Shown here in pieces: positions 32,938 through 63,857 of a DNA stretch of 64,000 nucleotides (position 1 is its first letter; every line of letters begins with the position of its first letter). The notes under the pieces were generated by a model, which was not told where the DNA came from, did no database searches, and saw only the letters and a program-made list of their open reading frames with translations. Source of the DNA: Chrysomallon squamiferum (lineage: Eukaryota; Animalia; Mollusca). The position numbers and the translations under genes are program-made. The stretch spans positions 19,468,001 to 19,532,000 of the forward strand of contig CM022670.1 in assembly GCA_012295275.1 (NCBI GenBank). The letters are read 5' to 3'.

Positions 32938-35900
32938 ATGGAGAGAATCGGACTGATATTTTATCTGTTCGTATTAAGCTTCTTGATTCTTGAAAGGAAA
33001 TTTTTATTAGCTGAATTCGGTGAGTTATGATTTAATGTTTAGTAAAATCTTCTGTATTTGCTAGTTATATTTTGTCTTTGAATTATATTGCAATTATATT
33101 TTCTATATCTTTATGAAACATAAACTGAACCAAGATCGTCACTTACAGTTTCAAAAATATTTTGTTTAAATATTATTTTCGACATACTATTATTACCTTT
33201 TTAATTAACAAGAAAGCTCTTTTTTTTGTATCTGTGTATAATTAAATAATTCTCTTAATTTTATATTTACTAAGGCAGTGTAGTTTCATATTTGAATATA
33301 ATTTATATTCTTAAGTTTGCATTAAATAAGAAAACTAAATATTTCTCTCCCTTGTTGGAAATACATATCCAAAGAAACATTTCTTATTGGTCATAAATTA
33401 TTTAGAAAATATTAATATTTTCATTTGATATTCCAGTACTTAAAAATTAAATTTGAAAAAAAAAACTTTTGATATAACTCTCAGGCCAAATAAAAATCAA
33501 ATGTGAATATATATATAAGAAAAAAAATCGTACCACCCAACAAAAAAACCCAACAACAAACCTTCTCCCCTAATAGAAAAAACAAAATACACAAATAAAT
33601 AAATAAATAAATAAATAAATAAATAAATAAATAAATAAATGAATAAATACAAATAAAACAACAAAAGGAACTACCTGACCAAACAAAAAATTTATTATGA
33701 ACTTCATGAAAAATTAATATTTCTCATATACTTGGGTAAATAATAAGTATGTATTACATGTTTGTAAAAACCTTCCAGCTGGTGTAGTTTTCAATATCTA
33801 AAAATAGCTAACAACGTACCGTGTTACATAGTTAGTCACGTCGTTAGTTTTCTTTCAGATCATTTAAAAGTTTATTACTTTATCCATAGATTTACACATA
33901 GATGGAATGTTGCAGTTGGTTTATTAAGCAAATTGTAAATGTTAATTGCTACTGAAAATAAATTTATTTAATTTATAAAAACTATTTTTGAATAGAAAAA
34001 AAAAAAAAAAAAAAAAAAAATAAAAAAAAAAAAGAAAGAAAAAACAACAAGATAACCCCTAAAAAAACAACAACAACTAAAATAAAAAAAAAGGTAATGA
34101 TTTTAATAAAGCTATCGCTTTTCGCTTGCATTTTCTGCAATAATAACCTATTTATTTTCATTTCATCTCGTATATACATTAATAAAGTCACAAGTGTAAA
34201 CAGTCGTCTTAAGTTAGCGTTCACGTTACTTCTTTTATGATGAAGTTGCAAAAGAAAAATGAGACAGATTCAAATACAGTTATATCAAAATATACAAATT
34301 ATTTCTGTATTTTCTTGTGAGTTTAAGCTAAATGGAATCTGGAAAAATTACAAACTTTGCTTAGCAACTTATTAAAAATTAAATATTCAGAGAGAGAGAG
34401 AGAGAGAGAGAGAGAGAGAGAGAGAGAGAGAGAGAGAGAGAGAGAGAGAGAGAGAGAGAGAGAGAGAGAGAGAGAGAGAGAGAGAGAGAGAGAATTACAC
34501 GAACTGACATAAAAGAATATGTCAAACATTTGAACAGCTGTCATTTTAACAAATTTATGTTATTACGTTTACAAATATATATTTAAAATAATGAATACAT
34601 TTGATTATTATTAATCTTTTTTTGGTATTAATTAAATATTAAAGGAATCATATATAATGATATACTTTCAGTTAAATTTCTAACGTACGCCATTTTGTTA
34701 CCGATCCTTTATATTTATACAGTTAGTTTAAAAAATGTAATGTAGATAAATAATTTTTTTCTTTTTTGAAAGATTAAAAATAGATAAAAAACTCCGATTA
34801 TTCATGAAAACACAATTTTTATAAACAAATATAGAAAACTATTTGTTTCATATTAATGCAATACAATTTGAACAAATAATATTGTTTTCAATTCACCAGA
34901 CAGTTTATAAATACACAATCAACATTTATTCTAGCTTATATTGGAATTTTGTTTTGTTAATGGCTTATGTTATCCGACAAATGTTATACTTTCAAAAATA
35001 ATAAATGTCGATTTTTAATATACATATATATTTGTATATGGTTATGTATCTGTGTAGGTACGTATGTATGTATATATGTATGTATGTATGTATGTATCTA
35101 AGTCATAATCCCATGGTATTATAACTTGTTTTTCACCAGTTAAATATTATTTTTACATTACTTCTGATATAAACTTTTAACAATATATACGAAAGCACTG
35201 CTATGCAAAAGTATTATTCCAATAAATGTATCAGTGGTGTTTAATATACTCTGCTTGTTTTGAATATAACACTTTCTACAAATGACTACCAGTATAAATG
35301 AGATGCAAAACTGGCCAAATGTGTCCGTTTTTAATGTTAGATGGAAAAATGAGCAAAACCTGCAACATCTGTAATATTAATCATGAGGAAATATCCTATA
35401 TTTTCAGTGATAAAATGTAGTACAGTTTATTTAAAGATATTGCTCAAAGGTTATTTTTGTCTTTTTGTTCTGAGTAACTACGAAACTATCAACTATCAAC
35501 ATTTGCTAAATATGGTTTTATATTATAGGCCAGTATTGATATTATTAATGATATGACTAAACTGTATGTACGCACAGGTTTTGATAATTTATTTTATATG
35601 ATTTGAATATTTTGTCTCACCTAATTCAATTGTAGAAGCACAAAAAGATGAAAAAAATATATTTTAAAGCTATTGTTTCAGAGAACTATTGCATGAATAT
35701 TAATGTAAATAGCACTTTTTTAAAATGCTTTTAGAACTTAAACAATTTATCAAATGTCTGTTATTTATTACTTAAATTATTTAGATTTCTGTCTCGACAA
35801 ATTAATTCAGAGTATAAATAATTCATCTTAAAGCATGTGAATATCCCGCCCAGAAACTGTGGAACGGCCAATATCTAAAACAATAAAATAAATGATGTGT

Positions 35901-62800: not shown

Positions 62801-63857
62801 AAACATACACATACACACACACGTACATGCAAACATATATACACATACATATACATACATACAGGCAAACAGTGAGACTGATTGTTAAATAGAGAAATGT
62901 TATTTTGTTTAATAAAGAGGCAGACAACATCTATGAGAATGTTGGTAACCAACAGCAGCATTCATCAAATAGAAGTGAAATTTCCAAACAAGAAAAAGCC
63001 AATGTTAAATCTGCTGGGAAAACTGAGAGTAACACAGCTCAGGAAGAAGTGGATGAAGAAGAAAAGTGTGAAGAGACTGCAGACTCTGTATACTGCAATG
63101 TTACTGAGTTCAGTCTGCCAGATGGTGGTGTACCAGTTTCTGAGCTAAGTCTTATCATGAACAAGATCAGAAACCAGACTGGTGGATTTGCTACAGAATT
63201 CCAGGTTTGTGTTAAAATAGAATGATTAAAAGAATGATTAGCAACATTTTAAAATATTTATTTGTTAGCAGTTATGTCTTGTATGATGAAAATACAAGAG
63301 AGGAAATCTACTGAAAATACTTCATTTATGTTTCACTTATAAATAGCAAGAGTTACATACATATATATATGTAACTGTTGCTACCTTTGTTAAGGTATAA
63401 AAGTCTGTTGGGATGGTCAGATAATCTGTCATGTACCACCACACTTTAGATGCATCATCTGATAAAAGAACTACAGTGTGAAACTGAAAATATTCATTAC
63501 AGCAATTACTTTCTGGTACCACTGTTGGAGAAATTCTTGCATTTCGATTTAAGCTCAGATCATATTGAATAACTAACTCTAATCACATTAATTTTCAATG
63601 CTTATTAAAAAAGATAACTTTTCTACAATTATTGCTATTTTAAGACTGATTAGTAATCTTTATAACATATTCTTATTGATGTCTTATAAAGATGCTGTTA
63701 ATGATCATCTGTTATGTTCTTTTACTGTTTTTTTAATAATTGTTTTTATTATTTTATTAATGTAAACAGAAGTTGCAGAAAGACTTTGTGTTTTCTTACA
63801 ATGAATCACAGATTGCAGAAAACAGATCTAAAAATAGATTTGCATCCTATTATCCAT
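50713..63857 (+). CDS. Receptor B: F-type lectin + EGF + TM receptor-type protein tyrosine phosphatase (3' end beyond window)
   Basis: Exons: 50713-50794 (signal peptide), 56498-56692 and 57813-58058 (F-type lectin), 58733-58885, 59315-59464, damaged exon ending 59871, 60217-60336 (cbEGF), 61358-61457 ([26 protein letters not shown]), 62113-62207 (RRRR stop-transfer), 62918-63204 (IYENV, VYCNV, GFATEFQ), 63770-63857 ([15 protein letters not shown]). F..EF..L followed by NxxKNR(Y/F)xxxxPY is the start of a classical PTP domain; the catalytic motif is not in the window. Confidence 0.82.
50894..53681 (+). repeat. Segmental duplication block X, copy 2 (inside receptor B intron 1)
   Basis: Colinear with 45797-48955, with several indels. 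Confidence 0.9.
53836..53919 (+). pseudogene. Extra signal-peptide exon lacking its splice donor
   Basis: [27 protein letters not shown]; the AGCTGAATT(C/T)G|GTGAGT end present at 33009-33025 and 50784-50800 is missing. Confidence 0.75.
53960..60510 (+). repeat. Duplicate of receptor A intron 1 through the EGF exons (about 33095-40100)
   Basis: Introns as well as exons align by eye (e.g. 35770-36650 vs 55900-56760; 38531-38826 vs 59465-59760). Confidence 0.9.
54387..54454. repeat. Perfect 31-bp inverted repeat with 6-nt loop
   Basis: ACTTTTTAATTATAAATAATCATGTTATTTA-gctgtg-TAAATAACATGATTATTTATAATTAAAAAGT. Confidence 0.9.
63770..63857 (+). CDS. First exon of the PTP domain of receptor B
   Basis: [29 protein letters not shown], 88 nt, CAG acceptor and GTAAGT donor, ending in phase 1 where the PYD motif is expected. 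Confidence 0.78.

Follow-up and report, generated by a model that had tools for sequence, protein, structure and literature searches.

Adjacent gastropod genes joining one lectin-like, EGF-rich outer part to an ITAM-like tail and to a predicted phosphatase: a candidate paired-receptor locus

Vertebrate paired receptors such as KIR, Ly49, LILR and Siglec are encoded by clustered genes that join near-identical outer parts to alternative tails. Here we describe two adjacent genes, A and B, in a window of 64,000 nucleotides of the Chrysomallon squamiferum genome (GenBank assembly GCA_012295275.1, contig CM022670.1, positions 19,468,001 to 19,532,000, forward strand). They share a signal peptide and a lectin-like outer part rich in epidermal growth factor (EGF) repeats, and then diverge, A into a tail resembling an ITAM (immunoreceptor tyrosine-based activation motif) and B into what is very likely, by homology, a receptor protein tyrosine phosphatase (PTP). 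Judged on these predicted structures, A and B show what marks a paired-receptor set, gene linkage together with outer parts that are closely alike and signalling tails that differ. The locus is real and belongs to a gastropod receptor family already known, and its pairing of ITAM with phosphatase, which recurs in relatives, is apparently unreported.

The closest described genes are those of Biomphalaria, where the LG5R family, described as scavenger class F-like, has subgroups 1B (short tail) and 1C (PTP domains) in one cluster, with short tails said to be 'without identifiable domain signatures' (PMC13712769), and where SudRes1, at which structural instability is reported, holds receptor PTPs (RPTPs) with MEGF and galactose-binding (GBD) domains (PMC12297450). 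A and B have the plan of the 1B and 1C types (signal peptide, galactose-binding/fucolectin domain, MEGF repeats and a single transmembrane (TM) helix), a likeness by architecture and not by sequence comparison, and share with LG5R the occurrence of short-tail and PTP versions in one cluster and the loss of EGFs between copies; A differs in additionally carrying calcium-binding-type EGFs. Their closest named relatives are from Gigantopelta and Haliotis, and no Biomphalaria-labelled protein was among their named matches. The sequence-only reading had raised the possibility that the arrangement was undescribed; the two architectures are in fact already published for Biomphalaria, and only the reading as ITAM and as a pair appears new. 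The term 'ITAM' has no occurrence in the main texts of PMC12297450 and PMC13712769, a search of 10 of the 27 supplements of PMC13712769 gave no match, and PMC7494358 has none of phosphatase, EGF, galactose-binding, ITAM or lectin. Pairing of ITAM and PTP in this family was not found in the literature searched, which excludes most subscription journals.

Draper/MEGF10/CED-1 receptors combine an EGF-rich outer part with an ITAM read by Shark/Syk (PMC8092387). Draper resembles the present pair in these features and in that its outer part recurs in an inhibitory form (Draper-II), but that brake is a splice isoform whose immunoreceptor tyrosine-based inhibition motif (ITIM) recruits cytosolic Corkscrew, whereas here it would be a separate gene with its own predicted PTP domain; the lectin-like N-terminal domain and the lack of NPxY in the A tail are further differences. 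Clusters, near-identical outer parts, alternative tails and apparent concerted evolution are shared with the vertebrate sets and with FcoR of Botryllus, which with Hydractinia is known to have invertebrate ITAM/ITIM receptor sets (PMC12065747). The vertebrate and Botryllus sets oppose ITIM and SHP phosphatases to ITAM/hemITAM or adaptors and have Ig or C-type lectin outer parts, whereas the predicted brake here is a receptor phosphatase. A molluscan receptor, oyster CgIgR, has a tail ITAM that also ends in YEKL and is reported to recruit Syk; it differs in its Ig outer part, and a PTP partner is not described in the accessible text (PMC6994640).

The window has the composition of eukaryotic DNA (28% GC, N = 0), and both genes were modelled by joining exons at GT/AG sites. 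Gene A (32938-44402, 13 predicted exons) encodes 691 amino acids in a fully open frame, in the order signal peptide, lectin-like domain, two MEGF-type EGFs flanking a Thr-rich linker, five calcium-binding-type EGFs, one further MEGF-type EGF, TM helix and a tail with YEKL-x10-YEKL. Its features are as follows.

31840-33119, forward strand: A promoter region and exon 1 block, with a copy upstream of B at 49491-50894 (83% identity, 1407 columns)
32938-33019, forward strand: A exon 1, predicted signal peptide, with ATG, hydrophobic core and phase-1 GT donor
36365-36559 and 37340-37585, forward strand: A exons 2-3, F-type-lectin-like/galactose-binding domain, with PF22633, PDB and Gigantopelta matches
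37891-38530, forward strand: A exons 4-5, encoding EGF repeats of MEGF/SCARF type plus a Thr-rich linker, with Pfam DSL/EGF matches; the exon 5 start at 38258 is a prediction only
39025-41514, forward strand: A exons 6-10, five exons of 120 nt for calcium-binding-type EGFs, with EGF_CA at E 1.5e-9 (exon 6) and an RNA joint
42043-42189, forward strand: A exon 11, MEGF-type EGF, with an RNA contig over 42045-42166 (one difference)
42986-43105, forward strand: EGF exon of A that is dead, a stop at 43030 replacing a Cys, with a GC donor
near 43413-43532, forward strand: second decayed EGF exon copy in A
43749-43848, forward strand: A TM exon, hydropathy peak 2.7, spliced to the last exon in one RNA contig
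44123-44402, forward strand: A last exon, 93-residue tail with four tyrosines; YEKL-x10-YEKL at 44340-44393 ends two residues before the stop

An AATAAA lies at 44500, downstream of the last exon, and the acceptor of the dead EGF exon is about as pyrimidine-rich as those of the other exons. An intron of A also holds an element (42289-42611) resembling a miniature inverted-repeat transposable element, with 23-nt terminal arms that are 78% complementary and many diverged copies in RNA contigs.

Gene B (50713-63857) has 10 exons within the window and 539 open codons, its last complete exon ending at 63857; the predicted protein repeats the outer part of A, though with a single intact calcium-binding-type EGF, and continues through a TM helix and juxtamembrane region into the beginning of a PTP domain.

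50713-50794, forward strand: B exon 1, encoding the signal peptide and intact, with 91.5% identity to A exon 1 and the same donor
50893-53681, forward strand: block within B intron 1, duplicated from A-B intergenic 45796-48954 (78-94% identity)
53836-53919, forward strand: degenerate second exon 1 copy within B intron 1, with a stop codon and without a phase-1 donor
56498-59464, forward strand: B exons 2-5, lectin-like domain, MEGF-type EGFs and Thr-rich linker; exons 2-4 are 92-97% identical to A; PF22633 at E 4e-9
59770-59871, forward strand: B copy of A exon 6, truncated by deletion of the original acceptor and first Cys; it would be in frame if used
60217-60336, forward strand: sole intact calcium-binding-type EGF exon of B, 98% identical to A exon 9
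61068-61113, forward strand: final stretch common to A and B (45 of 46 bases as in A 40202-40247), approximate junction of outer part and phosphatase half
61358-61457, forward strand: B TM exon, hydropathy peak 3.7
62113-62207 and 62918-63204, forward strand: B juxtamembrane exons, aligning with Haliotis receptor PTPs
63770-63857, forward strand: B first PTP exon, NRSKNRF..YYP (motif at 63821); Haliotis receptor PTPs align up to the same YYP

The copy at 53836 was ruled out as first exon of B by its stop and lack of an in-phase donor. The 5' end of B is built of nested duplications (45796-54062), the intergenic block being recopied into intron 1, and the older, broken exon 1 (in a region 70% like A) has apparently been superseded by a fresher copy of the A promoter and exon 1 (83%).

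A and B have about 8 kb in common, from promoter through EGF exons. DNA similarity starts about 1.1 kb upstream of each ATG and stops, in A, at 40247 and, in B, at 61113, which is 245 bases ahead of the B TM exon. The proteins are 82% identical over residues 1-357, best-matching exon pairs 91.5-98% identical and four intron stretches 5.3-7.5% diverged, with indels, much as the sequence-only reading had claimed for the signal peptides, lectin domains, EGF exons and introns of two adjacent genes. In the lectin exons synonymous (pS) and nonsynonymous (pN) differences are about equally frequent (pS 0.077, pN 0.069, pN/pS ~0.9, p 0.82). Given this and the low intron divergence, the copying of the outer part between A and B is recent, and the lectin domain overall is changing at a near-neutral rate. 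Its 20 amino-acid differences are clustered at residues 41-46, 124-126, 140-141 and 158-159, and none falls in the core that surrounds the conserved Trp-Trp and Arg motifs. The shared 1.1-kb upstream region is the sole hint that the two genes may be co-expressed.

Past the junction the DNA of A and B is unrelated. The claim that TM and cytoplasmic exons do not align was thus right for DNA but not for protein, where a weak alignment was found (23% over 100 amino acids, E 0.002-0.005 in a set of 34 sequences); it scored 70 against a maximum of 60 for shuffled controls, although shuffling splits the TM segment and overstates significance. Both TM exons are of 100 nt and run from phase 1 to 2. On the strength of this alignment and the identical exon length and phases, a very old common origin of the 3' halves is possible, although composition may be the cause instead. 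An assembly of duplicate haplotypes was rejected as the source of A and B, as the 3' halves differ.

The naming of the outer domain as an F-type lectin was borne out as sequence kinship but not as sugar specificity. A exon 2 matched PF22633 above the family cut-off (E 7e-9), and the A lectin region matched FBP32 (3cqo, E 1e-7) and eel agglutinin (1k12, E 8e-4) in the PDB. Among named proteins, the lectin exon comes closest to two from Gigantopelta aegis (69-71% identity), and after these to Haliotis proteins; A exon 3 is 71% identical to Gigantopelta P0001. Pfam gave no match for exon 3 of A or B, for the A tail, or for the two B cytoplasmic exons tested. F-type lectins have the fucose motif His...RxDx4(R/K) (PMC5712786). 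A and B keep the cation motif hhDGx, as AVDGN, and the RxD..R part of the sugar motif, but both have Glu for the triad His and lack the Cys-Cys pair of the FBP32 RGDCC loop. The residue at the His position is variable across the family, with His in 16 of the 35 rows that could be parsed by pattern in the 45-row tree described below. Given the His-to-Glu change and this variability, binding of fucose by A or B should not be assumed. The three Gigantopelta proteins closest to the A/B outer part (P0001, P0002 and P0003) are annotated without a TM helix, and may be secreted decoys or partial models.

YEKL-x10-YEKL and NRSKNRF..YP were found where the sequence-only reading had placed them, with YEKL codons starting at 44340 and 44382 and the phosphatase motif at 63821. 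The A tail satisfies YxxL/I-x(6-12)-YxxL/I with a spacer of 10, a pattern that arose in 0.47% of 20,000 shuffles of the tail. Its closest match is the ITAM tail of Gigantopelta P0012 (25% over 128 columns, E 0.001 in a small set); its Atlas matches are unnamed clusters only (0.94 and 0.90, one mostly Mollusca), with recognition below threshold, and give a weak lead. The last exon has two candidate acceptors. That at 44123 gives the 93-residue tail first proposed, and is the one found in RNA, whereas the rival at 44082 gives a 33-residue tail without the motif.

For RNA we used three metatranscriptome runs of one study, each with 1-2% of sampled words, mapped on the A stretch only (38950-44550) at 85% likeness; joints below 95% likeness in metagenomes may stem from repeats or from another organism. 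In one contig (depth 2.4, with 61 letters on its shorter side) 43845 is connected to 44124 by four intervening letters, and since this is the length required by acceptor 44123, the joint is in the ITAM frame. A second contig splices exon 6 to an exon-8-like exon at GT..AG (39142 to 39811). A joint from 39638 to 43289 (TC..GA) was discarded, as it follows repeated intron sequence. RNA evidence for the TM-to-tail splice of A is thus thin.

The TM-to-YYP stretch of B aligned with all 15 of the relatives in which Pfam called a PTP (E 2e-22 to 7e-10 in a small set; best match 32% over 180 amino acids), in agreement with the earlier claim that B runs into a PTP start. All 15 have WPDHG and 14 an intact HCSAGxGR, and the Phe of B in the KN[RK]F loop is common to 9. 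On its own the 29-residue last exon had no Pfam or PDB match, and the juxtamembrane exon as query found none of 97 candidates at E 0.01. Taken together, the alignments make B very likely a receptor PTP. Its juxtamembrane part has docking-like tyrosines in YENV and YCNV. Three relatives (P0014, P0035 and P0082) have a PTP-type juxtamembrane part and end before the catalytic core, as truncated annotations or natural phosphatase-less derivatives.

A survey of 177 fetched proteins together with A and B yielded 144 with a lectin domain covering more than 70% of a purpose-built profile. Excluding 92 without a TM helix after the lectin domain left 20 TM-PTP proteins (B counted, by homology) and 32 with a TM helix and no PTP. 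The ITAM pattern was present in 16 of these 32 tails, A included (mean 0.23 and maximum 3 in 2000 shuffles), and in none of the 20 juxtamembrane segments of PTP members. Spacers across the 16 are of 7-10 residues, the motif lies 13 residues or fewer from the C-terminus in 14, and in every tail group its first half is nearly always followed by D or E. Among the remaining 16 phosphatase-less tails are some that resemble truncated PTP models. Both architectures are annotated in Haliotis proteins, and that with ITAM in Gigantopelta too.

A tree of the lectin domain plus 45 residues (198 columns; 45 rows, being TM-bearing proteins of at least 140 bits plus P0001-P0003) pairs A with B (support 100/99). 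The nearest relatives of their outer part with a known tail are of ITAM type, among a thinly sampled set. ITAM tails (16 rows, one a loose match) and PTP tails (17 rows) are interleaved, as mixed across this tree as random labels: they require 10 changes, nine of them forced by starred branches, against a mean of 11.4 for shuffled labels, and a single ITAM clade was rejected (p-AU 2e-36). In one outer-domain clade, three Haliotis species have an ITAM tail type in common (63-80% identical) and likewise a PTP type (78-91%). Within H. rubra and H. asinina, identity of the ITAM outer domain to the same-species PTP is 84% and 82%, compared with 80% to the same-tail ITAM of the other species, a pattern of exchange or concerted evolution, by small margins, as expected of paired receptors. 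Each 3' half of A and B is of an old tail type also present in relatives; tails are old and stable, with outer parts moving between them. The mixing of tails on the tree suggests repeated exchange of outer parts between tail types, as in paired receptors.

We put at about even the chance that A is an activating receptor and B a damping one, for similar ligands bound by a recently copied outer part. On this reading a ligand would cluster A, and a Src-family kinase would phosphorylate the two YEKL tyrosines, on which a tandem-SH2 kinase of Syk/Shark type could dock, as for Draper/MEGF10 (PMC8092387) and oyster CgIgR (PMC6994640); the signal would probably drive phagocytosis or haemocyte activation. 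B, binding the same or a slightly different ligand, would bring its own PTP domain to the contact and raise the threshold, and if ITAM and PTP genes repeatedly exchange their outer parts, the specificities would stay matched while the binding loops change. More tentatively, and with somewhat less than an even chance, gastropods and perhaps other molluscs may have a family-wide paired-receptor system, with ITAM tails and built-in tyrosine phosphatases repeatedly trading one lectin-EGF outer part as it diversifies, the short-tailed LG5R/SudRes1 genes being activating partners of adjacent RPTPs.

Several results weigh against opposed signalling by a matched pair. The 16 ITAM tails form about four related groups, isoforms included, and are not independent; the abalone margins are just 2-4 points, and 198 columns underlie the tree. 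Neutral recombination would likewise mix the tails at random, and the lectin domain overall shows no sign of positive selection. A strict ITAM consensus has an acidic residue three before the first Tyr (D/ExxY; PMC6994640), where A has T, with E at -4 and -5. RNA support for A comes from a single contig with several differences from the window (allele or paralogue), which stops short of the YEKL codons, and no RNA joint from exon 11 to the TM exon was found within the mapped stretch, gaps that prove nothing. The catalytic core of B would lie beyond the window end, making its phosphatase a prediction by homology, and loss of EGF exons leaves its outer part shorter than that of A.

The alternative that survives best, a fair rival though less probable than the matched pair, is neutral shuffling, in which a tandem cluster undergoes unequal crossing-over and gene conversion that place outer parts on the adjacent tail and both receptors work, unmatched. 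The region is rich in local duplications and decayed exons, the tail labels and the pN/pS ratio are as this would predict, and SudRes1 is structurally unstable (PMC12297450); however, B has kept an open frame and an intact recent copy of the A promoter and first exon, and one ITAM and one PTP tail type recur within the same outer-domain clade in three Haliotis species.

CD45 and RPTP-alpha/epsilon remove the inhibitory phosphate of Src-family kinases. It is improbable, in our view, that B likewise acts as co-activator, priming A at the ligand contact: the automatic database names of its relatives are RPTP alpha/epsilon-like and its YENV and YCNV tyrosines would suit such a role, but nothing in this analysis links B to Src, and the ITAM tyrosines too would be encountered by a ligand-matched phosphatase kept at that contact. 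More improbable still is a fault in the models, with B a decaying chimera or assembly join, or A mostly truncated or secreted. To this the broken exon 1 copy and truncated EGF exon of B, the stop-bearing EGF exon (with its comparably pyrimidine-rich acceptor) and second last-exon acceptor of A, and the missing RNA joint into its TM exon could all be ascribed; yet both models are fully open, their introns are 5-7.5% apart with indels, their distinct 3' halves each match natural relatives among the annotated Haliotis and Gigantopelta proteins, and spliced RNA backs the A tail exon. YEKL also satisfies the YxxPhi sorting motif. That the A tyrosines are YxxL sorting or endocytosis signals, as might suit a scavenger class F-like family (PMC13712769), is very improbable given a tandem motif with a 7-10-residue spacer, the D or E after its first half in all tail groups, and its place near the C-terminus in 14 of 16 tails.

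If the activating and damping reading of A and B is right, they would represent an invertebrate route to the paired-receptor logic of natural killer (NK) and myeloid cells, with the brake wired as a receptor phosphatase rather than an ITIM. It would also offer a testable mechanism for snail resistance loci that have this architecture but no proposed signalling output, at which ITAM/PTP balance or specificity might track resistance.

Elsewhere in the window, a gene on the minus strand (23741-26600) has a Ser-rich open exon of 463 codons and several short upstream exons, three pieces of which were tested and had no Pfam match. Also on the minus strand, 4116-12900 contains exons of a Cys-loop ligand-gated channel, which resembles anion channels of glycine-receptor/GluCl type; its TM exon (4116-4532) matches PF02932 at E 1e-28.

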